Origin: a virus
Taxonomy: Duplodnaviria; Caudoviricetes
Direction: 5' to 3' (one strand)
IMG/VR virus record: IMGVR_UViG_3300027754_004594
Span: 1 to 54,551 of that record
DNA: 54,551 nucleotides
In this document: piece by piece, positions 11,834 to 49,499 of the stretch
Layout of the letters: every line of letters starts with the position of its first letter
Numbering within the stretch: position 1 is the stretch's first letter
Made by a program: the position numbers and the translations under genes
The notes under the pieces: model-generated
What the model saw: only the letters and a program-made list of their open reading frames with translations
Database searches by the model: none
What the model was told of the DNA's origin: nothing

Positions 11834-11834
11834 T

Positions 11835-12821: not shown

Positions 12822-12832
12822 TTTCGCTAATG

Positions 12833-13468
12833 CTATTTTCTTCGAGAAACTAGGTCCATAATTATATCATTAGGATTCATTTCTTTATAGAAAAGGTTTT
12901 CTATATCTTTAATTTGATAATCATTGTAATATTTAGGGTTAATATACCAATCTTCGAGATATTTCTTACCGGCGAATGCTAAACCAACATTCTCTACTAT
13001 CATTTTATACGGTTTGTTTTTCATAAAAGAGACTAGAGCGTCTTTTTGATATTGACCGTGGGGGTTATATAAATCATGTTCGATAGTTAAAATCCTAAAG
13101 TCGAAGTCTTCGAATGGAAATCTTGACAAAGCTTCGACGCAAGGGTCTTGAATTGAGCCAGTGGGGTCGATATCTATAGAAAGATAATCAATTACTTTTG
13201 GGCAATGTAATGCAATAAAAAGCTTTTTATAATCAATATCGAACGCATTAGCCTGTATGACGTGAGACTTCGGTCTAAACCTTGTAGCTTCTTGAACGTA
13301 ATCCGAGCGCATTTCGAGTAAGATTCCCGTCCACCCAATTTCTTCCAACCATGCGTTGTTAGACGCGCAGGGTTCCCCCTCTCCATTGCCGGCTCCAATG
13401 TCAACGTAATAACCGTTCCGAGATGGGAGCAGCAAGTTGACGAATAAATCTTGTTGTGATAGTGCCAT
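12833..13468 (-). CDS. SAM-dependent methyltransferase (FkbM-like)
   Basis: YVDIGAG, GWTGILLE, IDYLSIDID, TIEHD, EDWY. Confidence 0.75.
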   Translation of the reverse strand: MALSQQDLFVNLLLPSRNGYYVDIGAGNGEGEPCASNNAWLEEIGWTGILLEMRSDYVQEATRFRPKSHVIQANAFDIDYKKLFIALHCPKVIDYLSIDIDPTGSIQDPCVEALSRFPFEDFDFRILTIEHDLYNPHGQYQKDALVSFMKNKPYKMIVENVGLAFAGKKYLEDWYINPKYYNDYQIKDIENLFYKEMNPNDIIMDLVSRRK

Positions 13469-13471
13469 AAA

Positions 13472-14743
13472 TTATTTTCCTTCTATTAAAAACTTAGGTA
13501 AGGGGAAAATAAATTTGGTGCCATTGTTAATTGCGTCAGTTTCTCTTTGCAGGATTTCGTTTTTAAAATGCCAAGGACCGACTAAGTAATAATCCGGTTT
13601 CATTTGTTTACTTTCCTCTTCTGAAATTATTTTTATTCCGTTTAAGGTCTCCGCACCAAATTTTTCAGAGCTTCTTTCGGCGGCGTATTTTATATATTTA
13701 CTCGTATCGTCCCCAAGGCAATACCCTAAAAGAACATTAACCTTAGTTGAGGCTCCATATAAGTGTATTGTTTTTTTATTCTTTAAGACTTCTTGATTTA
13801 AGAATTTAACTAATTCATTTTTTTGATAAATTATTCTATTCTTAAAATCTTCGTAAATTTTATCCTCATCAAGAGCCATATCAAACTCCTTAAACCGCAA
13901 ACGCATCAGAGCGTCGCTTCTCTCTTGAGTATCGTAGTCGAAGTTATTATTTTTAACTGCGTAACAGCAAATGCTTCCGCCGTTTATGTCGTTTGTTTCT
14001 GCGTATATAAGCCTAAGACCAGCTTTTTTTAAAAGATGTTCAATTGGAGCAATATGATAATGTTCGAGATGCTCGCTGCAAAAGGTGTCGTAACATAAAT
14101 TTTCAATAACGTCTACGAGGTATGCCATTTCAAAAATCCACACACCTTTATCAGATAAAAGCTTTTCAATGTTTACACAGAAGTCTAACGGATCATCTAA
14201 GTCATAAAAACAAGCTATCGAAGTAATGATATCAAAAGACTTGAGTAAGTTATCTTTTTCCATCTCTGGGCAGGGAAATAGATCGTTGTAAATTTTAATG
14301 TTTGGATATTTTTCTTTAGCTTTCTTGGTAATGTCTGAGGGATCTACTCCGTATAACGAGACTCCCTCTCCGTAATTTAAAAGCAGGGTGGCGTCGTTCA
14401 TCGCTATGTCCAAAACTTTCCGAGGACTCTTTATCATCCTTGTCGCTTTATCGACAATAGACTTGAGGTGGTCTCTCATCGTTTTGCTGATATTTGACTC
14501 GTACCAATAATTTGAATACATGATTTTCGGTGGAATGGTGTGTAAGGTCTGAACCAGTCCGCAGGCATTTTCGTTTTGAGATACGTCACACCTCGCAATT
14601 TTATTAGGAATCTTACGTAGAGAGGTTTGGCCTTTTCCTTCTTTGATAAAAGACCCCTGTAGGTGTTGATAACCTAAATCAATAATTTCTTTAAGATGCG
14701 AATTACCGCAAATCCTACAGGTTTGTCTGTATTTGATATTCAT
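13472..14743 (-). CDS. NDP-hexose C-methyltransferase
   Basis: N-terminal CRIC zinc site, DIAMNDA, EHLEHY, NGGSI, YGASTK, PDYYLVGPWHF. Confidence 0.88.
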   Translation of the reverse strand: MNIKYRQTCRICGNSHLKEIIDLGYQHLQGSFIKEGKGQTSLRKIPNKIARCDVSQNENACGLVQTLHTIPPKIMYSNYWYESNISKTMRDHLKSIVDKATRMIKSPRKVLDIAMNDATLLLNYGEGVSLYGVDPSDITKKAKEKYPNIKIYNDLFPCPEMEKDNLLKSFDIITSIACFYDLDDPLDFCVNIEKLLSDKGVWIFEMAYLVDVIENLCYDTFCSEHLEHYHIAPIEHLLKKAGLRLIYAETNDINGGSICCYAVKNNNFDYDTQERSDALMRLRFKEFDMALDEDKIYEDFKNRIIYQKNELVKFLNQEVLKNKKTIHLYGASTKVNVLLGYCLGDDTSKYIKYAAERSSEKFGAETLNGIKIISEEESKQMKPDYYLVGPWHFKNEILQRETDAINNGTKFIFPLPKFLIEGK

Positions 14744-16100
14744 TACGTTTAGATAAAATTTGATTTTTCAGTTGTTCATCCACAAGAATATAGGAAATAG
14801 TATGAGTAACTCCATAATTTTCATGCTCTCTCTCTCCTCTGACTAAGTTAAGAAAAATCGAGTCTTCAAGAAATACCATTGCGTGAGCAACGTTTGGTTT
14901 AATGACAGCGATGTCCCCAGCTCTAATGACGCGAGTTTCTATATCTGTGTTTTTGTAAGATAAATCTTTAACAACGCTAACGTAGGAACCTTTGATCAGA
15001 AGACATTTCTGCTCTTGGATTGGGTGGTAATGATTCGCCCTCACTGATCCAGATTTAGATTCAATATAACCAATAAGATTAATTGGTTCCGGAAGTTCGT
15101 AATTGCTAATTTTTCCCCGGTCATCTACAAATTCTTTTTGACCATGCATGACATATTCAAGGTCTGAATTTTGTGTTTTTTCAGACCACTTTTCTATCAT
15201 TTCCTCTATAGAATCTTTAAGGTTATAAAGAAATTTGAAACCTGTATTTAAAAGCTTCTTGTTTGAGAGTGTGTATCCAGCATTGGGAATTTCGTCATTG
15301 GTTGTTTGTATCTTCGTTTCAGGCTTATAATTTTTACATATTTCAGCAACGTCTTTCACGGTAACATTCTCACTTGTTAAATGGAACGTCTCGTTTAGAA
15401 TGCTTGAATCTGCCATAAACTTAAAACACCTAGCTGCATCAATCAAAGATACGAGACTTTTATATTGGACTCCACCTGAGAATAGTTTAATGGTTTGATT
15501 TTGAGACGCCATTTTAGAAAAAAGATTTGGCATAATCCCAATCCTCATTGTGTCGGTAGAGTATCCATAAACCGAACCTAGTCGGAGAATGATATATTTT
15601 TTACCAGATTGCTTAATGTCTTGTTCGTTTTGGCATTTACTTTTTGAATAAGTTAGAATGGGACAAGTTAGTTCATCTTCAAAAATATTAAATTTAGTTT
15701 CAGCAAACCCTTCGTAAACTACATGGGTGGAAGGGAAAATGAATTTACAATTATCAGAAATAGATTCTAAAATATTGTTTACACCGACCAAAGCGGTGTT
15801 AATGATTTGTTCATCTTTTTCAGGATCGGCGTCCGTTCTTGTATAGGCAACATCTGTTATTCCAGCTAAGTGAATGACTATGTCAGCACCTTTTACAATA
15901 GACTGGATAACATCTTTATTTAAGATGCTTGTTTGAATAAATTTAAAACCCCAACTCCTAAGTTGGTTCACTCTCTCGGAAATAAAACGATTGTCTATGA
16001 CGGTAACGTCTTTATATCTGGTTTCGCCAGAGTAAATCTTACACAGTTCGGATCCAATATATCCCAAACCGCCAGTGATGATAATTTTTTGCCTATTCAT
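14715..16100 (-). CDS. NAD-dependent epimerase/dehydratase fused to a C-terminal cupin
   Basis: TGGLGYIG, YSKSK, RLGSVYG; C-terminal DDRG...RANHYH...VAHA cupin motifs. Confidence 0.85.
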   Translation of the reverse strand: MNRQKIIITGGLGYIGSELCKIYSGETRYKDVTVIDNRFISERVNQLRSWGFKFIQTSILNKDVIQSIVKGADIVIHLAGITDVAYTRTDADPEKDEQIINTALVGVNNILESISDNCKFIFPSTHVVYEGFAETKFNIFEDELTCPILTYSKSKCQNEQDIKQSGKKYIILRLGSVYGYSTDTMRIGIMPNLFSKMASQNQTIKLFSGGVQYKSLVSLIDAARCFKFMADSSILNETFHLTSENVTVKDVAEICKNYKPETKIQTTNDEIPNAGYTLSNKKLLNTGFKFLYNLKDSIEEMIEKWSEKTQNSDLEYVMHGQKEFVDDRGKISNYELPEPINLIGYIESKSGSVRANHYHPIQEQKCLLIKGSYVSVVKDLSYKNTDIETRVIRAGDIAVIKPNVAHAMVFLEDSIFLNLVRGEREHENYGVTHTISYILVDEQLKNQILSKRNEYQIQTNL

Positions 16101-17017
16101 TTCATTAATCCTCTTGGGTTTCTGTCTAAAAATTCATTTTTCCATTTTGGGGAGATTACAAAAGTTGATCCTTCTGGAACAATTTTCCCATTGATACCGC
16201 CGCCGCAAACATGTTCAGAGATACTGAAGTCGGAAATGCTAACCATTGGAAACTCTTTTGAGATATCTCCATCAATAGCTTGAATATAAAGCTCTCCGTA
16301 TTTTGATATTGCGCTAGTCATCCACCCATCTGAAGCGGTCTTCCTTGCGTCGCGAGTCATTCCTTTGTGAAAAGATCTATCAATCTTTTTCCAAAAATCT
16401 CCCCTTGGCACAATGTCGTGATCTTCGAGATAGGAAATTGCTATTTTAAGTCTTTTCCAATTAATAATCATACAACCACAACTATTGCTGACGCCTTGAA
16501 TATTAATATTGCCGTTTTCCGTGCTTATGTCAAATGGTTTATATAGATATTCTCTTGAGTCTAAATCTTTACCAGTTACTTCTACCATTATTTTTGGAAA
16601 TGTATTGTGAGTCTGGTTTCGATTATACATGTCTGGATGATCTGTTCCGGCGATAGCCAAAGTATTTGGGCAGGCGTTGAAAACCGAAACGCAGTCTTTA
16701 AGCCAGTCTTTTCTCCAAATGTAATCTGATTCAATTACGCAGGCAATATCCAATTCGTCGTTTTGACGTATTAAATTAAATATTCTTTCAAAGGAATAAC
16801 CGACTCCATAATTGCACCCGTGAATTAAAAGATTGATTGGAAATTTTTTAGAAGAGCATGATAAATCAAGAAGGGAGGATTTTAACTCCTTTTCTGATCC
16901 ATCATCTATTATCCAAACTTCATTTGGGGAAATTTCCGTATTTGCAAATAAGGAATTAATGCTTTGACTAAGAATTTGTGGACGATTAAAAGTGAGAATG
17001 TAAAATGAAATATTCAT
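16097..17017 (-). CDS. Glycosyltransferase family 2
   Basis: LTFNRP, IIDDGS, IESD. Confidence 0.8.
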   Translation of the reverse strand: MNISFYILTFNRPQILSQSINSLFANTEISPNEVWIIDDGSEKELKSSLLDLSCSSKKFPINLLIHGCNYGVGYSFERIFNLIRQNDELDIACVIESDYIWRKDWLKDCVSVFNACPNTLAIAGTDHPDMYNRNQTHNTFPKIMVEVTGKDLDSREYLYKPFDISTENGNINIQGVSNSCGCMIINWKRLKIAISYLEDHDIVPRGDFWKKIDRSFHKGMTRDARKTASDGWMTSAISKYGELYIQAIDGDISKEFPMVSISDFSISEHVCGGGINGKIVPEGSTFVISPKWKNEFLDRNPRGLMK

Positions 17018-18252
17018 ACTATTTTAATAGATGGCATTGGTATAATAAATTTTCCCTTGTAGTCTTGATTATTTTTAATAATCGTATCCGACATATTCCA
17101 AACGGATACTATGCAAAAATCTGTTGGATTTTCTTGGAAAAATTTCTTGCTGACAATCGGTATTTTAAATCCTGGGGAATATTTCCCTTGTTTGAGTGGC
17201 GAATCTTCAACAACGTATTTAATTATGGAACTGTTTAATTTAAAGACTTTGCTAAATAAAGTAAATTTAGCAGGGCACCCATAACAACAAATAGTTTTAT
17301 TATTTTCAATTGCTTCTTTTAAGATGCATTGAATTGCATCTGATAAATCTTTGATTTTTTTATCAAACTCTACATATGTCTGGTCGTCGTAAAGACCAAA
17401 CGACTCTTCTGAAGAAAGAAACTCGTAGACAGAGCTTTCGATTGGTATTGATTTATTACCTTGTCTTTTCGCAAAAATTCTAAAAGACCCTCCCTGAGTA
17501 GATACTCTTTGTATGGAGAAAATCTCTAATTGGTAATTATTTAAATACTTGATAAGGGGTTTGATGCCGTAGTATTGAAGATGCTCATGGTATACTTGAT
17601 CAAAATATAATCCCTTAATCGTATCGAGAAGGTAAGCGTTCTCGAAAATAAAAATACCATCATCTGTGAGGAGTTGCAATACCCCCTTAGTCATGCTGTC
17701 AATTTCTGCGACGTGAGCGAATACGTTATTCGCGCATATCACACTCATCTTCCCGTTTTTTTTCCCAATGTCTCTAGCGGTCTCTTCATTAAAAAAATTA
17801 TTTATAATCTTAGCCCCAAACCCTTTAGATCTCTCCGCTATATTCGAAGCAGGGTCTACGCCGTAAAGATTAATTAAACCCAGCCTAAGGAACTCCCTTA
17901 ATAAGATTCCGTCATTAGATCCAATCTCTAAGACGCTCGAGGACTCCCCCAGCCCCAGCTTTAAACAAACTGTAGATGCGTATTCAGAAAAGTGTTTAAT
18001 TAAACTCGGAGAGTCTGAACTAGCGTAAGAATAATTTGAAAATAAAATTTTTGGATCAACAGTCTCTTTCAGTTGGACATGCCCGCACTCGTCGCACTTA
18101 ACGACAGTAAGTGGGTATTGGTTTTCCAATTCTTGCTTCTCTGACGGGTAAGAATTTGCAAGCGGGGTTGACCCAAAATCAATAACAGTCTTAATCTTTT
18201 CACTCTTACAAAGTCTGCAATGGGTGATATCTTGATAATTTTTATTAGTCAT
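17014..18252 (-). CDS. NDP-hexose C-methyltransferase (second paralogue)
   Basis: CRLC, TPLAN, CDECGHVQL, EIGSNDG, ANNVFAH, YHEH, QGGS, YGCPAK. Confidence 0.9.
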   Translation of the reverse strand: MTNKNYQDITHCRLCKSEKIKTVIDFGSTPLANSYPSEKQELENQYPLTVVKCDECGHVQLKETVDPKILFSNYSYASSDSPSLIKHFSEYASTVCLKLGLGESSSVLEIGSNDGILLREFLRLGLINLYGVDPASNIAERSKGFGAKIINNFFNEETARDIGKKNGKMSVICANNVFAHVAEIDSMTKGVLQLLTDDGIFIFENAYLLDTIKGLYFDQVYHEHLQYYGIKPLIKYLNNYQLEIFSIQRVSTQGGSFRIFAKRQGNKSIPIESSVYEFLSSEESFGLYDDQTYVEFDKKIKDLSDAIQCILKEAIENNKTICCYGCPAKFTLFSKVFKLNSSIIKYVVEDSPLKQGKYSPGFKIPIVSKKFFQENPTDFCIVSVWNMSDTIIKNNQDYKGKFIIPMPSIKIV

Positions 18253-19024
18253 AGCTTAAGATTGGTCTAGAGACGTTGTATTTTAAATAAAAGCTATCGT
18301 TTAATTTTAAACAATTATTTAATTCATCCCACTCGTAAGAACAGGGTCCATATCTTAAAGCTTGAAAGCGTAATTTTCTTTGTAGATACTCTTTCGTGCC
18401 GACCCAGCTATAGTGCTTCGGAAAAACGAGAGCTCTAGGGATAGTCAAGGATGAACATTCGATATCTTTTTTTCCATTATCGTATTCTACGAGTTCGTCT
18501 CGATAAAATTTTTTTAATCCTTTGTTTCTATTAACAAACCAAGCTCTAGGAACAATGAAATCATCAACCCATGTAGAGTAGTTGATGCAATAATTTTTGA
18601 AATTAACTTTAAAATAATCTACTAAATTGTTTCGTTCAACAAATTTAATAAACTTTTTAATTTCTTCAATTTCCCACAGTTCGTCAACATTCACCATTAT
18701 GAGCAAATCTACGCCGTGCTTTTTGAGCTGCGTTAAGTTATTCGTCCACATATCGTATTCTTTTTGTGGTGAATCGTAAATTATCAAATCGTCAATTTTG
18801 CCAGCCTCTTGCATTTCTCTTGCCAATTCGCAAGTTCCGTCTGTCGAGTAAATCGGGAAACCCAACTTGTGGGTCTCATCGAAACAGCCATGACTAAAAC
18901 AAATTTTTATATCTGAAATTTCTGGACATAAAGACTTGTCGTTTTTAATCTCATTCCACGGATCGAAACATCTCGATAAAAGATCTTTAGACTCGTAGCC
19001 AATTGAGGTGATTCCAATTTTCAT
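18245..19024 (-). CDS. Putative GT-A fold glycosyltransferase
   Basis: STDGT, VNVDE, HYSW; cluster context. Confidence 0.6.
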   Translation of the reverse strand: MKIGITSIGYESKDLLSRCFDPWNEIKNDKSLCPEISDIKICFSHGCFDETHKLGFPIYSTDGTCELAREMQEAGKIDDLIIYDSPQKEYDMWTNNLTQLKKHGVDLLIMVNVDELWEIEEIKKFIKFVERNNLVDYFKVNFKNYCINYSTWVDDFIVPRAWFVNRNKGLKKFYRDELVEYDNGKKDIECSSLTIPRALVFPKHYSWVGTKEYLQRKLRFQALRYGPCSYEWDELNNCLKLNDSFYLKYNVSRPILSYD

Positions 19025-19026
19025 CT

Positions 19027-19947
19027 CTAGATTATGATATTGGAAGCGTTCCTATCTGACGCAAGTTTTACTCGAGAAAAATTATTTTTCAAATCTTGAG
19101 TAATTGATTCTGGAGATCCTGAAAATTTAAAATTAAATATTCTGCAAAATTTATCACAAGAAATGGCAAAATCATAAACTTTAGATGCAGACTGTTGAGC
19201 CTCAATGACCTTAATTTTAACTCCAAGAACTTCCGCCGTTTTCCTTCCTATAGTCTCGACGTTAGAGTTGAATGAAGCTAAATTGTAAACGCCTCTCTTA
19301 TTGAAGTTTCCAGTCTGGATAATCAGCTCCATCGCCCGACATAAGTCTTTAATGTCGAGGATCGGTCTTCTTACCGTGGGGTTCGATATCACCACCTCTT
19401 GATTCGCTTGAGCAGAGTAGAACATTGCATTTATCATAATGTCGTTCCTGACGTGAGGAGAGAAACCGTTAACTGTTCCAAACCTAAGTCCATAATAATT
19501 AATCTTATCAAAAATTCTAATATAATGATCAATTTCCGACTTAGATAAGTCGTAAAAACTTCCAGCCACATACTCTTGGCAGTCTTCTGAAACGATGTTG
19601 CGATTAACGTTACCGTAAACGCTTGAACTGCTAGCGTAAATAAACTTTTGCTTTTCAGAAATCTTGGTCATTAAATCAACGAAATACTGAACATTATTTC
19701 GGAAACACCCTATTAAATTCGACTCGCACATCTTAACGCTAGAATGCCCCGCCAGCAATATGACGTCAGAAAATTTAGAGAGGTATTCTTTAGTTAAGTT
19801 TTTAAAATTTTCTTTTAAGTTTAGAACTTCGGGGTTGCCAAATATCTCTAAGTCTACTGAGGTGATATCCATCCCTTTTTCTTTTAGATATCCATAGACT
19901 CGACTTCCGATGTAGCCGCAGCCGCCTAATAATAGAACTTTTTGCAT
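19027..19947 (-). CDS. NAD-dependent epimerase/dehydratase (likely start MQKVLL at 19947)
   Basis: GGCGYIG, YASSSSVYG, YDLSK, LRFGTV. Confidence 0.88.
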   Translation of the reverse strand: MQKVLLLGGCGYIGSRVYGYLKEKGMDITSVDLEIFGNPEVLNLKENFKNLTKEYLSKFSDVILLAGHSSVKMCESNLIGCFRNNVQYFVDLMTKISEKQKFIYASSSSVYGNVNRNIVSEDCQEYVAGSFYDLSKSEIDHYIRIFDKINYYGLRFGTVNGFSPHVRNDIMINAMFYSAQANQEVVISNPTVRRPILDIKDLCRAMELIIQTGNFNKRGVYNLASFNSNVETIGRKTAEVLGVKIKVIEAQQSASKVYDFAISCDKFCRIFNFKFSGSPESITQDLKNNFSRVKLASDRNASNIII

Positions 19948-19948
19948 A

Positions 19949-20860
19949 TTAAAATTTAAAATAAAGGATCTCGTTCCATTTATTATATCCACTTTCAATG
20001 AATTGAAGAATAATTTTCCTATCTACCATAGCCGTTTGTGGGCATGTTAAATTATGATAAACTAAACTAGCGACGTTTTTTGCAGCGGTCTGCATCGGAA
20101 CGCATTCCTCATAATCTTCTTTCCACCTCGACATCCACAGGATATTTTGAAATTTAGGATCTAAGATCAGCCTTGGAATCCCCAAGTGGTAAGCTAAGTG
20201 ACTAGGCCCATTGCATGAGAATATCCCATAAGAACTTTTCTTCAGAAGGTCTAGCGAATCATTAAAACTCAACACTTGATCTATAACAACGTTTTTAAGA
20301 AAAGAAACTGAAAAATCTGATTGATACTCTATCTGTTTTACCCATTTTTTAATAAACGGAAAGTATATAGTATAATCAGGGAGTTTCTCAGCTAATGAAT
20401 TAAGAAGTAATGGAATGTTTTTATACATATGATCTGCTCCATTACTGCTTAACCCGCAGTAAATGATCTTTTCTTTGATGAGCGGGTTGTCGGCGAAAAC
20501 TCTTGTTTTTTTTATTATTTGTGGAGTTAGTCCGTATTCGTTATATTTAAAACTCAACGGATTCAAGAAGAGGAGATCGGGAACATTAAATGTGACGGAG
20601 TTTGAATTATATTTATTTTTTATATAATTTAAAACTTTAAGATCGTGTTCGACAGCGTTGTGATTGGCGACGCTTTCGTCTACATTCTCCAAATTAAAAA
20701 TTTTTCCGGCGACGTGATTCAATGGGTTAAAGACTTCTGGTCTGGCAGATATTAAATTTTTATGAAGCACTCCTTGCCGCGTTAGTAGATAGGAGATTTG
20801 CAAAGATAGGCAGCAGTCTCCGATACCGTGTCCGCCAATATTTAAAAGGGCTTCACTCAC
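19949..20860 (-). CDS. GT9 (heptosyltransferase)-like glycosyltransferase
   Basis: GHGIGD, NGPSHLAYHLGIP. Confidence 0.65.
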   Translation of the reverse strand: MSEALLNIGGHGIGDCCLSLQISYLLTRQGVLHKNLISARPEVFNPLNHVAGKIFNLENVDESVANHNAVEHDLKVLNYIKNKYNSNSVTFNVPDLLFLNPLSFKYNEYGLTPQIIKKTRVFADNPLIKEKIIYCGLSSNGADHMYKNIPLLLNSLAEKLPDYTIYFPFIKKWVKQIEYQSDFSVSFLKNVVIDQVLSFNDSLDLLKKSSYGIFSCNGPSHLAYHLGIPRLILDPKFQNILWMSRWKEDYEECVPMQTAAKNVASLVYHNLTCPQTAMVDRKIILQFIESGYNKWNEILYFKF

Positions 20861-21408
20861 GTCGATAGTAGTTGCATTATAGCGTTAGAGATATCTTCGG
20901 GTTTATGTTGGTTGATATACTCTTGAGCCGCATCGGGATTGTAGAACGGAGACAATCCAGCCATGTCGGGGATAAAAATTTTATACATGTTTAAATCTCC
21001 AAAATACGGCCTACAGTTATTAAAATTGATACTTCCACCGAATAAGATTACCATGGGCTTTCTATAATGGTCAGAGAGGTGCATGCAAAAACTATCAATC
21101 CCCAACAAAAGGCTACATTTATTTATTATGAAAGCTGTTTGACTAAAGGATGAAGTTTGTATTTTTAAGCAATGATTATAACTTATATCAGATGAGTCTA
21201 TTTGAATTATTGATATTTCTTTAGACTGCAAGAATGGATGAATTAAATCAATAACCTCTTGCCATTTATTATAAAATTTTCCTAAGCCTTTCGAGTGGGG
21301 ATTGAATACAATAAACTTTTCTGGTAAATTAGGACAATGACATTCTTTAATTAATGGTTTTTCAATTTTAAGCCCGCAAGACAAAGCGTATATTTCAACA
21401 ATGTGCAT
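20857..21408 (-). CDS. GT9-like C-terminal domain protein
   Basis: FIVFNP, WQEVI, GIDSFCMHL...PMVILFG. Confidence 0.7.
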   Translation of the reverse strand: MHIVEIYALSCGLKIEKPLIKECHCPNLPEKFIVFNPHSKGLGKFYNKWQEVIDLIHPFLQSKEISIIQIDSSDISYNHCLKIQTSSFSQTAFIINKCSLLLGIDSFCMHLSDHYRKPMVILFGGSINFNNCRPYFGDLNMYKIFIPDMAGLSPFYNPDAAQEYINQHKPEDISNAIMQLLST

Positions 21409-21410
21409 AG

Positions 21411-21737
21411 TCAGTATTTAAGATCCAAAGCAATTCTATCTTTACCGTTATGCGTATAAGTTATTATTCTTTGAGTTTGGATATGTGGAATTAGGCAAAT
21501 TTCAAACAGTCTAGGGCGCGGCCCAATCCCTTCCATAGCAAATATATTATCCATTTCCGGCTTGTAGTCAATAATAAAATCTATATAAGGATTGCCTTCA
21601 AGTATGCATTGATACATTGGGTTGGTTGCAAAATATATCTTGTAATCAGGATACGTTTCTCTTAAACTCCTAAGAAGAGATGTGCAAAGTAAAACGTCAC
21701 CAGCTCCCTCGGGCATTACAAAGAGCAGATTGTTCAT
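21411..21737 (-). CDS. GT9-like N-terminal domain protein
   Basis: GAGDVLL...LRETYPDYKIYF...ILEGNPYID. Confidence 0.7.
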   Translation of the reverse strand: MNNLLFVMPEGAGDVLLCTSLLRSLRETYPDYKIYFATNPMYQCILEGNPYIDFIIDYKPEMDNIFAMEGIGPRPRLFEICLIPHIQTQRIITYTHNGKDRIALDLKY

Positions 21738-22117
21738 CTCGAATTGAAAAGACCCAAGAAATCTTTTAAAGAGTTTGGTTTTTTATTAATAGATACTTGC
21801 TCCGCCACTGGGCGGTCTTCCAATTCTATACGGTCTTTTCGAAAAGATGTTGATTGGTATCTTTTAACGTCGTCAATGAATTTCTTCCCAGCTCGCGAGA
21901 TAAACCAAGCCAAAGAATTTAATCCTATCATTCCCTTCATGGACATGAAAAACTCAAAATTGTATTTTTTAACAAGGCTCGTTGCGAGCTTCATCTCTCT
22001 CGGCCAGTCAATTTTATCATAATTTTTTTCTATGATGAAAGCCGCAATGATTTGTTGCTGTTTCGAGATAGCCCTCTTCTTTAAGATTTTCGCAACTTTG
22101 GTTTTTTTAGGCTCCAT
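21734..22117 (-). CDS. Hypothetical protein
   Basis: Overlaps both neighbours in the same orientation. Confidence 0.6.
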   Translation of the reverse strand: MEPKKTKVAKILKKRAISKQQQIIAAFIIEKNYDKIDWPREMKLATSLVKKYNFEFFMSMKGMIGLNSLAWFISRAGKKFIDDVKRYQSTSFRKDRIELEDRPVAEQVSINKKPNSLKDFLGLFNSR

Positions 22118-23213
22118 GTTTAATGGTGAGGGGTCTTTCTTCAGAAGTCAAGATGCTTATATCATTTTTAACCATTCTTGAGACGAGTTCTTGGAAAGAG
22201 ATTTTGGGTTGCCAGTCAAGTTCTTTCCTGGCTAAAGAGGAGTCTCCTAACAAAAGATCTACTTCCGCCGGTCTGTAAAATTTAGGATTTATTTTAACTA
22301 AAACAGAAGACTTTACGTCGTGTTCTTCAACTAAATAGTTAGCAATAGAGAACTCTTCGCTTGACCCGTTTCCATGCCAACAGCCTTCAATATTTGCGTT
22401 TTTAAACGCTAAGTTAACGAACTCTCTGATTGAATGACTTTCGTTACTAGAGAGGATATAGTTTTTAATTGGAGTTTTTTGATTAAGCATCTTCCAAATC
22501 CCCTCTACGAAATCTTCAGCGTGACTCCAGTCTCTTTTAACGTCTAGGTTGCCAAGTTCTATCGGACTGAATGAGTGTTTATTTTTTATAGCTTGATTGA
22601 TTCGAGCAACTCCTTTTGTGATTTTTCTCGTCACGAACTCTTCCCCTCGTCTTTCTGATTCGTAATTAAAACACCAACATTGAATAGCGTATAAGTTATA
22701 GCTTTCTTTATATACTTTAACAATTTGTCTTGCTGCGACTTTTGACGCTCCGTAAGGACTTCTGGAAGAGGGCGGGTGATTTTCGTCTTGAGGCGTATAC
22801 TTAACGTCCCCGAACTCCTCGGAAGATCCAAAATTTAAATACTTTGTGTGTGGGGAGCATTTTCTTATAGACTCCAACTGCCTTAGAACACCGAGACAAT
22901 TATATTCAAAGTGTTGTTCTGGGCATTGCCAACTTGTTCCCACGAAGCTATTGGCGGCAGAATTAATAAAATAATTTGGTTTATATTTTTCAATTAATGA
23001 GGATATAGAGTGGGAATCTCCTAAATCCATTATCTCTAAAATAAAATTAGAATTTACTATATGCTTAATATTCTGAGTATTGGGGACGCTTAATCTTCTT
23101 GTAGCTCCGATGACTCGAATGCCTTTTTTTAATAAAAAATCAGCAAGATAAGAGCCCATTTGTCCCGTTACTCCGGTGACTATTGCGACTTCATCTTGTT
23201 TAGTTTTATCCAT
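22107..23213 (-). CDS. gmd: GDP-mannose 4,6-dehydratase
   Basis: TGVTGQMGSYL, SSEEFG, PYGASK, EFVTRKIT, LGNLD.KRDW, FYRPAEVDLLLGD. Confidence 0.93.
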   Translation of the reverse strand: MDKTKQDEVAIVTGVTGQMGSYLADFLLKKGIRVIGATRRLSVPNTQNIKHIVNSNFILEIMDLGDSHSISSLIEKYKPNYFINSAANSFVGTSWQCPEQHFEYNCLGVLRQLESIRKCSPHTKYLNFGSSEEFGDVKYTPQDENHPPSSRSPYGASKVAARQIVKVYKESYNLYAIQCWCFNYESERRGEEFVTRKITKGVARINQAIKNKHSFSPIELGNLDVKRDWSHAEDFVEGIWKMLNQKTPIKNYILSSNESHSIREFVNLAFKNANIEGCWHGNGSSEEFSIANYLVEEHDVKSSVLVKINPKFYRPAEVDLLLGDSSLARKELDWQPKISFQELVSRMVKNDISILTSEERPLTIKHGA

Positions 23214-23241
23214 ATTATTGATTTTTAAATTTTACTAGTGA

Positions 23242-23973
23242 CTATAGCATTAATAATTCACTAGATGAATATATTTTAGGTAAGTCCAGAACGATTTCAA
23301 GAATATTATTTTCTTTACAGAATACGGATTCTGAGGGTTCTAGGTTTCCGGCTTTTCGATCTCCGCTATTAAAAAGGGAGATGGTTGAATTGGGATTTTC
23401 TAGTTTAATTTTTGCTAAAGTGTTGACTTGAGCTTTGTCCGAATCTATAGAGATTATGCATTCGTCAACAGCTTTTAAATTTTGCATTATTTGTTGTCTA
23501 TGAGCTTCATTCATGAACGGTTTGCTTTTCTTTAAGCCTACCTGTAGGTCGCTATTTACTATAACTATCAAATACTTACATCGTTCTTTAGCCTCGTTAA
23601 GGTATTGTAAGTGCCCTAAATGTAGTGGGTTAAAGTATCCAGAAGCTATTCCAATTTCTGATTTGTTTTTTATTTTAGCTCGCCAATCTAAGGCGTTTAT
23701 AGCCTTGTCGTCGATGAAGAGATCGACATTGGGTTTACCTTCATCAACTAGCTCATGATACTTAACACCCCAATTGCTTAGTTGGCTAATCGTAAGGTCG
23801 TGATAATCTCGGCCAGATCCGCGACCTCTAGCTGTAAATATGATTATATAATGCCCGTGTTGATGTAGAATATTTATATTATCTACAACATCTTGGAACG
23901 GAAGACTTTTAGCATACTCCCCGCTGTTAGTTAAGGAGCAAATTGTTCCGTCTATATCAAACGCATATCTCAC
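23242..23973 (-). CDS. Fusion of a HAD-like phosphatase and a cytidylyltransferase-fold (HldC/RfaE-II-like) nucleotidyltransferase
   Basis: FDIDGT...FTAR...FIDDKA, then SGYFNPLHLGH...VNSD...GD...SSS. Confidence 0.8.
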   Translation of the reverse strand: MRYAFDIDGTICSLTNSGEYAKSLPFQDVVDNINILHQHGHYIIIFTARGRGSGRDYHDLTISQLSNWGVKYHELVDEGKPNVDLFIDDKAINALDWRAKIKNKSEIGIASGYFNPLHLGHLQYLNEAKERCKYLIVIVNSDLQVGLKKSKPFMNEAHRQQIMQNLKAVDECIISIDSDKAQVNTLAKIKLENPNSTISLFNSGDRKAGNLEPSESVFCKENNILEIVLDLPKIYSSSELLML

Positions 23974-24704
23974 AACGACACGACTCCTTTTAATCGAACA
24001 ACTTTAGACCCACACTCGTTGGCGAACGCAATCGCAGACCGGACATCCTCAGAAAGCCCGTATTTATAAATAAGACCGGCAAAAAAAGAATCTCCAGCGC
24101 CAGACACGTCTCTTACCTCAACCTTTTCAACTGGAAAATTCTCCCCGTTAAAAAAACATCCTTCTGATCCTTTTGTGTAGATTGTTTTATTAAATAAATT
24201 TTTAGGCATTGTGTTTTTTGATCTATCGAATTCTTCTTCGTTTATTTTTATATATTTGCAATTATTAGCCCATTCTCCGAGTCTTTTTTTGCTATCTAAA
24301 AATACATTTTTGTGATTGTTACATATATATTCCACGTCTTCTTCTTTAAGGAATCCTTTATCATAATCTGAAATAGCAATTAAATCATAATCTAAAGATA
24401 GCTTGCTAACATCGCATCTTTGCACGTCGCCCTCCCCGGCGTCAACCCTAATAAACATGTGATTAGTTTGGCTGTGCATGTATCTTGTTTTTGTGTAGCT
24501 TTGCCAATTGGGGTTAGTGACGATGTCGCAATGAACATTTAAAGAAGCAATATTTCTTTGAAGGTTTTTAGCCATGCCCGGATTCTGAGTCTTGGATAAG
24601 ATGTTCAGAACAGGGACGGGGACGTCTGGGCAAAGTCTGCTCACGGAACAGTAGACAAACACGTCCCGGCACGAGTCTCCTATTACAAGAATCCTTTTAC
24701 TCAT
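23970..24704 (-). CDS. PfkB-family kinase (HldA/RfaE-I heptose-kinase-like)
   Basis: VIGD, RLCPDVPVPV, KTR, SDYDKG, DVSGAGD. Confidence 0.85.
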   Translation of the reverse strand: MSKRILVIGDSCRDVFVYCSVSRLCPDVPVPVLNILSKTQNPGMAKNLQRNIASLNVHCDIVTNPNWQSYTKTRYMHSQTNHMFIRVDAGEGDVQRCDVSKLSLDYDLIAISDYDKGFLKEEDVEYICNNHKNVFLDSKKRLGEWANNCKYIKINEEEFDRSKNTMPKNLFNKTIYTKGSEGCFFNGENFPVEKVEVRDVSGAGDSFFAGLIYKYGLSEDVRSAIAFANECGSKVVRLKGVVSL

Positions 24705-25489
24705 TGGTTGATTGCTTGCTTGAAAAACGTAACAACCTCAGAACCTTGCTGAGAGATATTTTTAAATTTAAGAATCTTCATCACCCCATCGCGAATATAT
24801 TGATTAATAAACATCACGTCTCTTGTGTGATCCTCAAAGTCTCCCACGATACAGAAAGTCGGGATTCGCAACATAGAAGACTGAGTTTTGTAACAGCTAT
24901 CTGTCCCCAAAAACTTAGAACAGTATTGTACGCAGGCTAAGCAGCAAACAACATCGTCAAAAGAACAAAATTTAACATTATCACTTTCTTTTAGTCCGTA
25001 ATTAGATAATTCTTTTTCAGAACCAAAGATTAGATAATTAAAATCTTCACTAATTATCTCACTGACGATTGAAGAAGGAATGAATTTCTGCGGCAGGTTG
25101 AACGACGAATAGACGTTAGTAGAGAATTGGCTTCCGAATGGGTGAATTCCTATGATTTTTTTCTTTTCCTTAAAAGAATTTACTAAGCGTTCAGCTATCA
25201 AAACAGCTTCATTTTTAAAAATTAAATTATTATAAAAAAACCTAGGGCAAACTTCAAAAGGCTTCTCCTCTTTGGAGTCGGCACAAGAAAGAATTTCATC
25301 CGTCTGACTGTCGTGATCAGCAATTGTTTCAAAATTATATATTTTTATATTTTCAACACCGAATTCATTGAAAAATTCTTTAGCTTTGCTGAAATGGGTG
25401 TGAATATAATACTCTCGATCCAAGTGAGTCATTGCAAAAGGGATAGTTTGTAAAAAGTCCCCAATTCCACCTCTTATGTATACTTTCAT
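24701..25489 (-). CDS. GT9-like glycosyltransferase
   Basis: RGGIGD, IGIHPFGS, FLGTDS. Confidence 0.65.
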   Translation of the reverse strand: MKVYIRGGIGDFLQTIPFAMTHLDREYYIHTHFSKAKEFFNEFGVENIKIYNFETIADHDSQTDEILSCADSKEEKPFEVCPRFFYNNLIFKNEAVLIAERLVNSFKEKKKIIGIHPFGSQFSTNVYSSFNLPQKFIPSSIVSEIISEDFNYLIFGSEKELSNYGLKESDNVKFCSFDDVVCCLACVQYCSKFLGTDSCYKTQSSMLRIPTFCIVGDFEDHTRDVMFINQYIRDGVMKILKFKNISQQGSEVVTFFKQAINQ

Positions 25490-30795: not shown

Positions 30796-31413
30796 TCAAA
30801 CTAAATCGAAAGAATTTTTGCTTTGCATCTTTGTTTTTAAGAAAACTCTTGCTTTTTCGTGCAAATTGATAGCGGTTTGAGTGCTCATGTTTAGCTTTTT
30901 TGCAATGACTCCCCAAGTTGTCAGCTTCTCATTGTCGGAAAAGTATCTTAGTTTATAAACCTCGCACACTCTATTGTCTTTAAATAACAAAAGTAAAGAT
31001 TTTAAATAATCAATTAAATCATTATCTTTATCTACAGGCGAAGCTACGTCCTTGATGTTTAAAAAGTCTATAGTCTTTTCGTCTGCCCTGATATACTTCT
31101 TATTAGAATTAATGTAATTAAGAAAATGATATCTGGCGCAATTACAAAACCAAGTAGAAAATTTTGTATCTCTATTTGAATCGAACGAACTGACTGCTTT
31201 ATATAAGATAAAGTCTTTTTCTAACTTAATATCTTCTCTACTCATCCCCATTTTCATGAGTGTGTAGACGTATTTTTTAGCAATAGAAAAGTAAAAATTA
31301 TCATAACCACTAGATAGTTCTTTAAAACTGTCACTACAGTTATCGCTTTTAATCTTTTTGACTATTGCCAAATCCTTATCCTTAACCTTACTAACACATT
31401 TGCCTTTTTTCAT
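30796..31413 (-). CDS. Phage sigma70-family sigma factor
   Basis: Region 2-like KAVSSFDSNRDTKFSTWF; region 4-like HTH TWGVIAKKLNMSTQT. Confidence 0.8.
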   Translation of the reverse strand: MKKGKCVSKVKDKDLAIVKKIKSDNCSDSFKELSSGYDNFYFSIAKKYVYTLMKMGMSREDIKLEKDFILYKAVSSFDSNRDTKFSTWFCNCARYHFLNYINSNKKYIRADEKTIDFLNIKDVASPVDKDNDLIDYLKSLLLLFKDNRVCEVYKLRYFSDNEKLTTWGVIAKKLNMSTQTAINLHEKARVFLKTKMQSKNSFDLV

Positions 31414-31599
31414 AACCCTTTGAGTCTAAGCTTACGAAGCTTTGTGACTCTAAAATCTATTACACATTTAATCTTGAAATTGTGCAAAAACAATATGAGT
31501 TTAATTATTGGATAATCAAGTATTATGTTTTCTAATACAATTAAGATGCCGGAATTATCTTAATTAATGAAATTCCCTGTATTTAAACAAAACTTTGTT

Positions 31600-31684
31600 T
31601 TTCGTTAGGGTTCCGTCTTTTAGAAAAATGAAGGTTCAGTAAGTTTCGACATTTTTCCAAAATAAAGTTTCGTTAAGGTTCCGT
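31600..31684. repeat. Two 17-nt direct repeats TTTCGTTA(G/A)GGTTCCGT
   Basis: 31600-31616 and 31668-31684, 16/17 identical. Confidence 0.85.
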
Positions 31685-31717
31685 ATAATTTTGCGGAAAG
31701 AATCTTTTAGATTTAAG

Positions 31718-32222
31718 AAGGGAGACTGAGCTTTTGTTGTCAATCTCTTGCAAGCTTACTACATCCTTTTGAGTTGAATCTAGAAATATAGCAGGTCAAT
31801 TGGAGACTTTAACTCCATTTTTGCTTTCGCACGATCTCGCAACACCTACGTTAGTCTTTGCATCTCCGGCTTTAGCAAGTCCGTTTAGCTAGTAACTGTT
31901 GCAGTCTATTTACCGATTACCTATCTGACTGGGTGACTTATTTCACTGTGATCTGCCAAGTTTTTACTTTTTATCCTTTTTGAGAGTAATCGTAGTTTCT
32001 TTTGCAGCCGATCCACTTTACCTATTTCAGGTTCTGTTTCTTGGTATAGATGCCCATGTTTCAGGACGCCGCTTCTTCCGACAAAAACGTTGGACTTCAG
32101 AAGTCTCTGCATCTACAGTCTTTTAACGGACTTATTGTGTCTAATGTTTAAAATAAATATGTTTAGTATTTAAGTAACCGCGATATACGGTCCAGCTATC
32201 TCCCATTTGGTAATGTTTAACT
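31718..32222 (-). ncRNA. Candidate large structured ncRNA, ~490 nt (GOLLD/ROOL-like size class; family unassigned)
   Basis: Upstream TTGACA promoter; terminal pairing GGGAGA/UCUCCC; several 5-9 bp long-range helices; GAAA and UGAAA loops; no credible ORF. Confidence 0.65.
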
Positions 32223-32228
32223 TTAAAT

Positions 32229-32258
32229 AGTCTTAGCTCGGAAGGGTAGAAATGTCAA
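32229..32258 (-). promoter_or_regulatory. Sigma70-like promoter for the candidate ncRNA
   Basis: TTGACA-N18-AAGACT (or N17-TAAGAC). Confidence 0.55.
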
Positions 32259-32259
32259 A

Positions 32260-32667
32260 TTATTCTTTTAAAGATTTTGGATCAACCTTAGAAGCAAGAA
32301 AAATTAAATTTTTTAAATCTTTTTCCGTGATGCCCCTGCTATTACACTTATCATCTTCATTGTTGAGAGTCTCGCACGCGGAATTAATAACGCTTGCGAT
32401 CCCAGCGGCGGTCACGCTATTGATTTCTAACGTCTGAGAAAAAGTCGTCAAGGGCTTGAAAAGCGTCCAATACATTTGACCGTCGATAATGCAAGACCTT
32501 AAAAACCCTGAGATTTCCATTTCCTTGAGAGCGCACGTTAAAGACGCATCCTCTGCCGGTTCATTTTCTGATACTAAAATTACCTCTTTTCTATTCTTTT
32601 TTAAATTAAAAGAAGTGTGGGTGAAAAAGTATTCATCCAATAATCCGTAAGAGTCTAAAATTGTCAT
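32260..32667 (-). CDS. Hypothetical protein (likely start MTILDS at 32667)
   Basis: ORF; TTGACA-N17-AACATT ends 7 nt before this ATG. Confidence 0.65.
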   Translation of the reverse strand: MTILDSYGLLDEYFFTHTSFNLKKNRKEVILVSENEPAEDASLTCALKEMEISGFLRSCIIDGQMYWTLFKPLTTFSQTLEINSVTAAGIASVINSACETLNNEDDKCNSRGITEKDLKNLIFLASKVDPKSLKE

Positions 32668-48447: not shown

Positions 48448-48524
48448 ACTCTGATAGCTTAATTGGATAAAGCCTCGAATTTCTAATTCGGCGACTGTGG
48501 GTTCAAGTCCCACTCGGAGTACCA
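48448..48524 (+). tRNA. tRNA-Arg(UCU)
   Basis: Acceptor ACTCTGA/TCGGAGT, anticodon loop TTTCTAA, T-arm GTGGG-TTCAAGT-CCCAC, encoded CCA. Confidence 0.88.
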
Positions 48525-48560
48525 TTTTTGTTAGAAAGATCTTTGAAATTTAGTCTAAAT

Positions 48561-48648
48561 GCAAGTGTGGCGGAATGGTTTACGCAAGGCGCTTAAGACG
48601 CCTCGGGCTTTAACTCCCATGCACGTTCGAGTCGTGCCACTTGCACCA
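48561..48648 (+). tRNA. tRNA-Leu(UAA)
   Basis: GCAAGTG/CACTTGC, AGGCG-CTTAAGA-CGCCT, long variable arm, TTCGAGT, ACCA. Confidence 0.93.
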
Positions 48649-48655
48649 ATTTCGC

Positions 48656-48736
48656 TGTTGAGGGTCGTTCCCTCAACACATATTGTATGGGGTAAGTCTG
48701 CGAAAACTTTCCCGCTAGACTCTAGCAACATACAGT
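48656..48736 (+). ncRNA. Structured spacer RNA (9-bp hairpin plus three-way junction)
   Basis: TGTTGAGGG/CCCTCAACA; ATTGTATG/CATACAGT enclosing GGGTAAGT/ACTTTCCC and GCTAG/CTAGC. Confidence 0.4.
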
Positions 48737-48745
48737 CAATTTAAT

Positions 48746-48839
48746 GCTCCGATAGCATAGCGGTCAAGTGCGACAATCTTATACATTGGAAGCTCTAGAT
48801 TTGAGCAAGACGTAGGTTCGAATCCTACTCGGAGTACCA
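48746..48839 (+). tRNA. tRNA with UAU anticodon (nominally Ile) and a 22-nt variable region
   Basis: GCTCCGA/TCGGAGT, D-stem GCAT/GTGC, loop CTTATAC, V-arm GCTC-TAGATTT-GAGC, GTAGG-TTCGAAT-CCTAC, ACCA. Confidence 0.88.
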
Positions 48840-48962: not shown

Positions 48963-49499
48963 TCATAAAATAATTAATCCAGCGTGCAGTTCTCCGTGGC
49001 AATTCCTGCATACTAAAATGCATTTATCTAATTCTTTTTTTATTTCGGTAATTGAATAAGATCTGAGGTTTGATATATTGTATTCTTTTTTACTGGGATC
49101 TACGTGGTGAAAATCTAATGACCCCACGTATTTATTGTAGCCGCAAAAAATACACTTTCCACCTTTTAAATCAACGCATTGTCGTTTTCTTGTTTTTTGC
49201 TTTTCGTAGGACATTTTATTACTGCATTCTTTGCACCAACCGTGAGCTTTGCCTTTGGAGTTTATGTAATGATTTTCTTTGTTTAATTCTTTTTGCAATT
49301 TACATTGCGGACACGTCCTGCAAGTAATTCCTTTCTCGTTAATCATATCTTGATTTTTTCGAAATCTAAGGCTATTTGTTTTCAGTCCAAATTTTTTCAA
49401 CCAATGTCTTGTGGTTGTTTGTGATTTGCCCATCTTTTTTGCGATTTGATAGGTGCTTAGTCTTAGTTTGATTAACGTTATTAAATCTGATTTATTCAT
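48963..49499 (-). CDS. HNH endonuclease with N-terminal HTH and zinc fingers
   Basis: STYQIAKKMGKSQTTTRHWLKK, CPQC, CKEC, CIFCG..LDFHH, VCRNCHGELH. Confidence 0.9.
   Translation of the reverse strand: MNKSDLITLIKLRLSTYQIAKKMGKSQTTTRHWLKKFGLKTNSLRFRKNQDMINEKGITCRTCPQCKLQKELNKENHYINSKGKAHGWCKECSNKMSYEKQKTRKRQCVDLKGGKCIFCGYNKYVGSLDFHHVDPSKKEYNISNLRSYSITEIKKELDKCILVCRNCHGELHAGLIIL

Follow-up and report, generated by a model that had tools for sequence, protein, structure and literature searches.

A conserved, pseudoknotted RNA of more than 400 nucleotides precedes the sigma-factor operon of uncultured phages

Intricate conserved folds are rare among natural RNAs of more than 400 nucleotides (nt), and the discovery of each new class has led to new biology, as with ribozymes, ribonucleoproteins and the OLE, GOLLD and ROOL RNAs. 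Among smaller regulatory RNAs, 6S RNA is co-transcribed with the gene downstream of it (ssrS-ygfA in E. coli). Here we describe a structured RNA encoded on the minus strand of IMG/VR record IMGVR_UViG_3300027754_004594, an uncultured virus (Duplodnaviria; Caudoviricetes) whose record is estimated to be 33% complete; its 54,551 bases are the whole stretch analysed, hereafter the window. The RNA lies in an 846-nt gap (31414-32259) between two minus-strand genes, the downstream one encoding a sigma factor. A sequence-only reading of the window had placed a large structured noncoding RNA with its own promoter here, about 490 nt long and closed by a helix at 32204/31720. Our analysis indicates that the structured RNA is almost certainly real and supports its promoter, but not that extent. 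The RNA of the window is about 470 nt long, against about 415 nt for most relatives; its 5' end is paired to a mid-molecule segment and not to the 3' end, and its conserved part ends near 31750.

The comparison draws on 61 distinct family sequences from uncultured phage contigs, which form two deep clades with sigma proteins 38% identical between them. A search with the sigma protein retrieved 28 related viral loci (clade 1), all with a gap of 459-490 nt, and in blastn the window gap aligned with each of them over one common core. With a 23-nt core pattern, 31 metagenome loci were identified, every one of which matched the gap profile (E values 1.6e-146 to 4.5e-55). The union of both retrievals gave 35 distinct clade-1 sequences. 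L164, the closest relative of the window (79% identity), has two inserts in common with it, while its spacer before the sigma gene cannot be aligned with that of the window. A sigma-protein profile then led to three loci with sigma proteins only 38% identical, which carry the RNA (nhmmer E 6.8e-17; clade 2). A pattern based on pseudoknot P6 (Table 1) matched 69 viral loci, corresponding to 46 distinct extracts: 16 already known, 27 new members and 3 judged unrelated from the alignment.

Further searches marked out the known distribution of the family. A 16-mer pattern scan of viral contigs gave no new sequence among the matches listed, and neither blastn of the gap nor tblastn of the sigma protein matched any cultured-phage record. 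Across 185,579 bacterial and archaeal species, each represented by one genome, the core pattern matched once, at L190, which we took as chance because the gap profile did not match it (nhmmer, no line at E <= 1e-3). For one relative, G005, the genome is complete (174,551 bases). The RNA family belongs to a lineage of ~175-kb phages from freshwater samples.

Helices were identified by searching for stacked column pairs that stay complementary while changing, followed by manual modelling; this procedure replaced RNAalifold on the raw MAFFT alignment, which had returned a muddled structure. The resulting fold contains about 15 helices, including three pseudoknots, with pairing kept through compensatory changes. 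In the clade-1 alignment (A1; 35 sequences, 106 pairs), standard pairs filled 90.4% of cells, compared with 35-44% when 3' partners were slid by 1-3 columns, and over half of the pairs (55 of 106) had changed on both sides. The A1 covariation score was 0.304 against 0.055-0.079 for the controls, and none of 500 shuffles scored as high. The family alignment (A4; 61 sequences, 32 well-aligned core pairs) was 96.8% paired against 32-42% with slid partners, and scored 0.486 against at most 0.106 (0 of 500 shuffles). The most common pair at 10 of the 106 A1 positions was G.U, which would be C.A on the other strand; the RNA is therefore read from the minus strand of the window.

The sequence-only reading had named both covariation and folding energy as checks, and the two gave opposite answers. 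Compensatory pairing stood far above slid and shuffled controls. The minimum free energy of the single sequence was no better than that of shuffled sequences (minus strand, z = -0.79; plus strand, z = -0.57), so our decision rested on comparative data. It is covariation, not folding energy, that carries the case for a structured RNA. Compensatory pairing beyond controls, together with the lack of a conserved reading frame (below), is what generally marks a structured noncoding RNA.

Comparison between relatives also redefined how the molecule is closed (Table 1). Helix P1 occurs as 19 unrelated sequence types, in which each 5' strand fits its own partner (mean -15.8 kcal/mol) better than swapped partners (-9.1 kcal/mol); a swapped partner was as good in only 23 of 342 comparisons. 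The GGG of the formerly proposed closing helix, GGGAGA..CUG/CAGUCUCCC, pairs with CCC in this helix (P1a), and the 3' arm assigned to it falls in DNA that cannot be aligned with L164 and is absent elsewhere. Two further long-range pairings drawn from the window, GACUG/CAGUC and CCAAG/CUUGG, proved specific to it. A third, AAGUCCGUU/AACGGACUU, pairs perfectly in the window and L164 alone; in 33 of 35 clade-1 sequences it contains a C.A mismatch, and its 5' arm covaries instead with CGGR at 32080-32077 (P6). Other predicted helices were borne out. Compensatory changes support UAGAUGC/GCAUCUA (P7) and UGCAACA/UGUUGCG (P11), and covariation was seen in the UGGAG/CUCCA hairpin (P13). P7 encloses P8, P9 and the 3' strand of P6 (span 32046-32116), and P11 encloses the most conserved core (31891-31850), including P12 and the 3' strand of P15. 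The hairpin ACC-UGAAAUA-GGU in the insert shows one compensatory change (A-U to G-C) relative to L164, which has GCCU..AGGC at this position. Many unpaired purines are invariant across the family (AAAGAC, GA.A.G, AUAG).

Pseudoknots had been anticipated and are present, but the one originally drawn is not among them. The 3' arm of that pairing, CGAUUAC/GUAAUCG, covaries with AUUACC at 32214-32209 (P1b). L164 keeps a 5-base-pair version of it, which might be an alternative pairing in the window/L164 subclade. The three pseudoknots that emerged from the alignments each occur as several complementary pair sets. P5 is formed by CAAC/GUUG (25 sequences), CCAC/GUGG (14), CAUC/GAUG (9), CAAU/AUUG (2) and CAGC/GCUG (1), with 10 missed by the pattern. 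Its 3' strand sits inside a second 'TTGAC' box, which reads UGGAC or AUGAC in clade 2; because the box changes in step with the P5 5' strand, we consider it an RNA pairing and not a -35 box. P6 comprises CCCG/CGGG (58), UCCG/CGGA (2) and CUCG/CGAG (1). P15 comprises AGUCA/UGACU (20), AGUCC/GGACU (17), AGUCG/UGACU (10) and AAUCC/GGAUU (9), with 5 exceptions or misses; the window itself is an exception, forming 4 of the 5 pairs.

Table 1. Features of the RNA and its flanks. Positions refer to the window; A1 and A4 are the clade-1 and family alignments, and changed pairs are those altered on both sides.
Feature	Sequence	Position	Strand	Observation
Upstream gene		32260-32667	minus	135 amino acids from ATG at 32667; predicted winged-helix protein
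Sigma-70-type promoter	-35 TTGACA; -10 AAGACT	32229-32258	minus	-35 at 32258-32253; 18-nt spacer; -10 at ~32234-32229
Whole conserved structured RNA		31750-32222	minus	From alignments, pair counts and metatranscriptome contigs at 31791-32232; both ends approximate
P1 5' strands	AUUACC (P1b); UGGG (P1a)	32214-32209; 32205-32202	minus	Pair with GGUAAU 31921-31916 and CCCA 31933-31930
P1 3' strands	CCCA; GGUAAU	31933-31930; 31921-31916	minus	Partner fit of P1 sequence types
P2 hairpin	GACCG/CGGUU	32192-32176	minus	100% paired; 3/5 pairs changed
P3 hairpin	UAAAUA/UAUUUA	32173-32154	minus	95.6% paired; 5/6 pairs changed
P5 (pseudoknot 1, crosses P1)	CAAU/AUUG	32137-32134 with 31800-31797	minus	35/35 paired in A1
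P6 (pseudoknot 2, into P9 hairpin loop)	UCCG/CGGA	32130-32127 with 32080-32077	minus	61/61 paired
P7	GUAGAUGC/GCAUCUAU	32116-32109 with 32053-32046	minus	90% paired; 5/7 pairs changed (A1)
P8		32108-32092	minus	96.7% paired; 4/4 changed (A4)
P9	ACGUU/GGCGU	32090-32086 with 32070-32066	minus	96.3% paired; 2/4 changed (A4)
Insert	ACCU-GAAAU-AGGU	32012-32045 (hairpin 32032-32020)	minus	Window and L164 only; absent in 33/35 clade-1 sequences
Module 1	loop motif CUCUCAAAAAGGAU at 31986-31973	31953-32009	minus	Conserved CUCAA(A)GGAAAAG motif; 3' strand common with module 2
P15 (pseudoknot 3, crosses P1 and P11)	AGUCA/(A)GACU	31938-31934 with 31857-31853	minus	98.7% paired in A4
P11	UGCAACAGUUAC/GUAGGUGUUGCG	31903-31892 with 31849-31838	minus	96.3% paired; 10/11 changed (61 sequences)
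P12	CGGACU/AGCCG	31883-31878 with 31871-31867	minus	Almost invariant; putative pairing in clade 1
Peripheral hairpin	GUGCGAAAGCA	31832-31822	minus	Window and L164 only
P13 hairpin	UGGAG-UUAAAG-UCUCCA	31817-31801	minus	93.3% paired; 4/6 changed (A1); absent in clade 2a
Module 2	loop motif AACUCAAAAGGAUG at 31775-31762	31754-31796	minus	P14 stem 91.9% paired; 3/12 pairs changed
Variable spacer		31414-31749	minus	Window and L164 only; direct repeats; no alignment with L164 over 31755-31536; absent in all other homologues
Sigma-factor gene		30796-31413	minus	205 amino acids; Pfam Sigma70_r2 E 6e-06; PHROG 'RNA polymerase sigma factor' E 1.7e-08

Two of the elements, modules 1 and 2, are hairpins with the same Shine-Dalgarno-like loop motif, CUCAA(A)GGAAAAG. 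A repeated CUCAAAA(A)GGAU had been noticed in the window, and it is this conserved loop motif of the two duplicated modules. Their 3' strands (13-18 nt) are identical within a genome and different between clades. Within genomes, an identical 3'-strand string was shared in 60 of the 60 tested (median 15 nt, range 8-18), whereas the longest string common to two of ten subclade representatives (90 subclade pairs) was 7 nt at the median and never exceeded 11. Among the shared strings are GCGAUGGUAG, GCAAAUGGUGGA, AUAAGCAGU, CUGGCAGUUC and CUGACAGUCAA, and each 5' partner strand retains a GCUA core. The two copies are direct repeats separated by about 200 nt. The complete genome G005 (174.5 kb) contains only two exact copies of the repeat, both inside the RNA, and further copies have one mismatch. 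Extra copies of the module motif in the window are at chance level (12 versus 10 expected). As independent hairpins would not stay identical, these data suggest partner-swapping strands, one coevolving partner or homogenisation by recombination. The main-clade repeat resembles a loop sequence of 5S rRNA, a likeness that was considered and dropped, since the repeat differs between clades.

The spacer between module 2 and the sigma gene has features of its own. In the window, a third copy of CUCAAAGG repeats the module motif at the sigma ribosome-binding site (31432-31416). In addition, the window spacer contains direct repeats TTTCGTTAGGGTTCCGT and TTTCGTTAAGGTTCCGT (68 nt apart) and a palindrome (31551-31576), and a strong hairpin immediately precedes the ribosome-binding site of sigma. 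In L020, L027 and their relatives, the last 35 nt before the sigma ATG place the Shine-Dalgarno sequence AAGGAAAC in the 3' arm of a hairpin with GUUUCC, possibly a local translational control in that subclade only.

The promoter seen by the sequence-only reading is a family trait. TTGAC is kept in 35 of 35 clade-1 sequences, and 60 of 61 family members have a TTGnnn-N16-18-nAnnnT promoter immediately before the RNA, with TTGACT or TTGACA as the -35 box in 49 of these. Between the end of the -10 box and that of the P1 5' strand, the median distance is 20 nt (range 17-51); from this spacing, transcription would be expected to start about where P1 begins, near 32222. In L007, the interval from the RNA to the sigma gene showed no terminator-like site on the RNA strand. 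In L235, one such site with a poor U tract lies inside module 2.

Seven metatranscriptome runs from six studies contain part of the stretch, and contigs from four runs in four studies cover 31791-32232 and the sigma gene, although such contigs show neither strand, ends nor level and may include DNA carry-over. No RNA contig in these four runs covered 31434-31790, which is not evidence of absence. In two studies the contigs end at 31791/31792, immediately ahead of module 2. As 31790 is the first base that differs between the window and L164, an assembly break explains these stops as well as a real 3' end would.

The genes on either side of the RNA follow a common order: winged-helix protein, RNA, deoxynucleoside monophosphate (dNMP) kinase or transfer RNA (tRNA) in some members, and sigma factor. 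The position ahead of a sigma-factor gene had been recognised from the window, and the domain match agrees with it (Table 1). In clade 1, the order small gene, gap and sigma gene is kept in 28 of 28 loci; in all 28 the upstream open reading frame is stop-terminated and an ATG of its own opens the sigma gene. The RNA is directly preceded by a homologue of the upstream protein in 28 of 28 clade-1 loci and 24 of 27 clade-2 sequences. On the 3' side, 25 of the 27 clade-2 sequences have a dNMP-kinase gene. Sigma follows the RNA directly, after the kinase, or (L256) after a tRNA and the kinase in three of four searchable clade-2 records; the fourth, which is 33% complete, gave no sigma match. The L256 tRNA gene (L256:1257-1329; Rfam 71.6 bits) begins about 25 nt after the RNA in this clade-2 phage, ahead of the kinase and sigma genes. 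The RNA lies on the same strand as the sigma-factor gene and at most ~1.1 kb upstream of it.

In the window, the upstream gene starts at the ATG at 32667 and not at the listed TTG. The AlphaFold2 model of its product (predicted local distance difference test score, pLDDT, 89.5) has a winged-helix layout, its C-terminal half being helical. Among solved structures it comes closest to repressors of the MecI/BlaI/MarR type, although no match was better than E 0.013. From 31413 leftward to base 3 all genes lie on the same strand, and the locus adjoins a switch in gene orientation. GC skew tracks gene strand only and is uninformative on a replication origin.

We compared the RNA with known families using the 4,227 families of Rfam 15, scanning 15 sequences (the window, 8 clade-2 loci and 6 clade-1 loci). 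At curated thresholds, the whole window gave tRNAs only, and a permissive scan of 31400-32400 gave three chance-level rows (best E 1.3). GOLLD, ROOL, OLE, raiA, HEARO and the other large Rfam RNAs were absent at E <= 10 from 31400-32400 and at E <= 1 from the 14 homologous loci. RNase P gave no model match, and the pairing of the 5' end with the middle of the molecule is unlike P1 of RNase P, which joins the 5' and 3' ends. Neither Rfam nor ARAGORN, which found only the three tRNAs of the window, revealed a transfer-messenger RNA (tmRNA). Group I and II introns gave no model match and the RNA contigs no joints; as the flanking genes are complete and separate, the RNA is not an intron. There was likewise no Rfam match to 6S RNA, whose place the multi-branched fold with three pseudoknots would not suit, nor to any riboswitch or T-box. 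RNA-guided transcription by dCas12f with sigma-E was also considered; no Cas12f-sized gene adjoins the RNA. The RNA is thus very probably not a member of any Rfam 15 family. The suggestion of a new class is upheld by these searches, while kinship with GOLLD or ROOL, which had been offered as the alternative, is not. An abstract-level literature search found no description of this RNA, and a prior description is possible. On present evidence the RNA appears to represent a new class among large RNAs of phages.

With regard to function, we tentatively favour an RNA that acts in cis as an operon leader over a processed RNA that acts in trans. A promoter stands directly upstream (60 of 61), the downstream genes are on the same strand and no terminator was found in L007. 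In the mechanism we propose, host RNA polymerase would transcribe the RNA early, at the 5' end of the operon for the phage sigma factor, as its leader. A factor, either a protein or a small ligand, would bind the folded core (helices P1-P13 together with pseudoknots P5, P6 and P15), and the two duplicated modules would be the effector part. Because the module 3' strands are identical and the GCUA-containing 5' strands similar, pairing is possible within or between modules. Pairing within a module, or of the module 1 3' strand with the module 2 5' strand, could then form a switch resembling a 1-2-3-4 attenuator, which would set the level of downstream operon expression.

Several observations weigh against a cis-acting leader. 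No conserved terminator follows module 2 in the loci examined and no expression platform was found; a conserved helix masking the ribosome-binding site is likewise lacking outside the L020 subclade. The interval from the RNA to the next gene differs among members in length (~45 nt for most of clade 1 and ~340 nt for the window) and in content (a tRNA in L256), and the next gene itself is sigma in some clades and dNMP kinase in others. The module stems, the presumed effectors, covary more weakly than the core: in A1 the module 1 stem (P10a) shows 77% pairing, and none of its pairs has changed on both sides. The unremarkable folding energy and the strandless metatranscriptome contigs described above count on the same side. 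Finally, we know of no riboswitch aptamer as large as this RNA of more than 400 nt with three pseudoknots.

A stand-alone RNA or ribonucleoprotein, cut from the operon transcript and acting in trans in host takeover, for example on RNA polymerase, a sigma factor or another host factor, is a less probable but credible alternative. Module 2, left on the remaining mRNA, would mimic module 1, and the operon would thereby come under feedback from the same partner protein. Known RNAs this large and pseudoknotted act in trans (RNase P, tmRNA, OLE, GOLLD, ROOL), processing of the 5' end of the nearby L256 tRNA would free the RNA, and the variable spacing to the next gene points the same way. The linkage to sigma is fixed across clades even where the sigma proteins are only 38% identical, and concerted evolution of the modules is expected if both bind one partner. 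The contigs that end before module 2 are a weak hint in the same direction, but their stops coincide with the first window/L164 difference and are perhaps assembly breaks. Also against this explanation, neither a terminator nor a partner was found, and the fold is not a 6S-like rod with a central bubble.

A more specific proposal, that the RNA is a subunit or regulator of phage transcription takeover working directly with RNA polymerase or with a phage or host sigma factor, we regard as unlikely. The RNA would then resemble 6S RNA in function though not in structure, or serve the phage sigma as a cofactor, and module 2 would copy module 1 for feedback.

The remaining explanations fare worse. 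A ribozyme, for instance a self-processing RNA that trims itself from the operon transcript, would suit the compact fold with three pseudoknots, the many invariant unpaired purines and, weakly, the possible discrete ends in contigs; it is very unlikely given that no Rfam 15 ribozyme model matched, that the contigs over the element show no joint or cleavage signature, and that complete, separate flanking genes speak against an intron. Scarcely probable, too, is conservation acting on DNA, with the repeats as operators for the winged-helix protein or as part of a replication origin and RNA structure secondary. Repeats that match within a genome and differ between clades are expected of coevolving operators, the neighbouring gene is a predicted winged-helix protein and the locus lies beside a switch in gene orientation, but the repeats cannot account for ~100 covarying base pairs with G.U asymmetry. 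Moreover, they are direct and far apart, their exact copies in G005 are confined to the RNA, and GC skew follows gene strand only. A small protein, from the 63-amino-acid ATG reading frame at 31921-32112 of the window or from short leader peptides at the AUGs that follow a Shine-Dalgarno-like AAGG in both modules of the main clade, has practically no chance, as the homologous segments (134-192 nt) spread over all three length classes modulo 3 (16, 22 and 23 of 61), have stops in all three frames in 29 of 61, leave a family median of 17 amino acids for the longest ATG reading frame on the RNA strand and give no Pfam match, and the module AUGs are absent from window module 1 and from clade 2; the sequence-only reading, which had held that codon-level conservation of this frame would refute its RNA, is here in agreement with the alignment.

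Some observations concern the relatives and the rest of the window. Relative G004, which holds L241, spans 88,816 bases and is classed as a provirus by IMG/VR; its flanks might name a host. L172, a 2,914-base metagenome contig, carries a chimeric copy of the RNA with a 5' half of L179 type and a 3' half of L005 type; its P1 helix is broken (-7.3 kcal/mol), and the copy is an assembly artefact or a recombinant. In the leftward unit that includes the sigma gene, a long run of sugar-modifying genes (7932-25489, minus strand) encodes an aminotransferase, glycosyltransferases, a methyltransferase, nucleotide-sugar epimerases and heptose-pathway enzymes. The DNA polymerase at 3-2930 (minus strand) is apparently split, with 2169-2930 corresponding to the N-terminal and 3-1541 to the C-terminal part of PHROG 405; a 212-amino-acid open reading frame between them (1538-2176) matches 'DNA polymerase exonuclease subunit'. 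ARAGORN places three tRNA genes at 48448-48839 (Arg-TCT, Leu-TAA and Ile-TAT), two of which reach the Rfam curated threshold, and an HNH endonuclease gene (48963-49499) adjoins them. A phage DnaK (Hsp70) homologue at 49736-51646 (plus strand) matches PHROG 22485 (E 2.6e-250) and is 55-60% identical to annotated DnaK in several records.

As a metagenomic find, the RNA is unusually well defined, with 61 sequences, about 15 helices, three covariation-supported pseudoknots, a promoter context and a fixed sigma partner. The fixed linkage to sigma offers a concrete lead, namely control of the early-to-middle transcription switch in large freshwater phages. The identity of the modules within each genome points to a specific binding partner or a conformational switch, and the alignment is already adequate for structure probing or cryo-EM.

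Among described RNAs, GOLLD, ROOL and OLE are comparable in being longer than 400 nt, phage-borne or environmental, noncoding, elaborately folded as revealed by covariation, and without an explained biochemical role. The tRNA beside the RNA in L256 recalls the tRNAs often reported next to GOLLD and ROOL. In contrast to these families, the present RNA matches none of their covariance models and is smaller than GOLLD and ROOL. It is also fixed behind a promoter and ahead of a sigma operon, and has modules that evolve in concert. Its one likeness to 6S RNA, which is functionally tied to sigma factor and RNA polymerase, is a link to sigma-factor biology, seen here as strict linkage to the phage sigma gene. 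However, 6S RNA folds into a rod-like hairpin (~185 nt) whose central bubble resembles an open promoter, and it binds the sigma-70 holoenzyme, while the present RNA is multi-branched and has three pseudoknots.

The remaining parallels are with leaders. Long operon leaders such as T-boxes, cobalamin and other riboswitches, and 1-2-3-4 attenuators show the same succession of promoter, RNA and same-strand operon, with no terminator found between RNA and operon here, and the repeated complementary segments could pair in two ways, as in attenuators. Unlike these leaders, the present RNA has no conserved terminator or helix masking the ribosome-binding site and no constant downstream gene, and it is two to three times larger than known riboswitch aptamers. 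The leaders of ribosomal-protein operons that mimic a ribosomal RNA site also present two like modules, one in a large RNA and one nearer the mRNA, alike within a genome. In phage HK022 put RNA and other processive-antitermination leaders, a promoter-proximal structured RNA likewise heads a long same-strand phage unit, but put consists of two hairpins in ~70 nt, and the present RNA is about six times larger.

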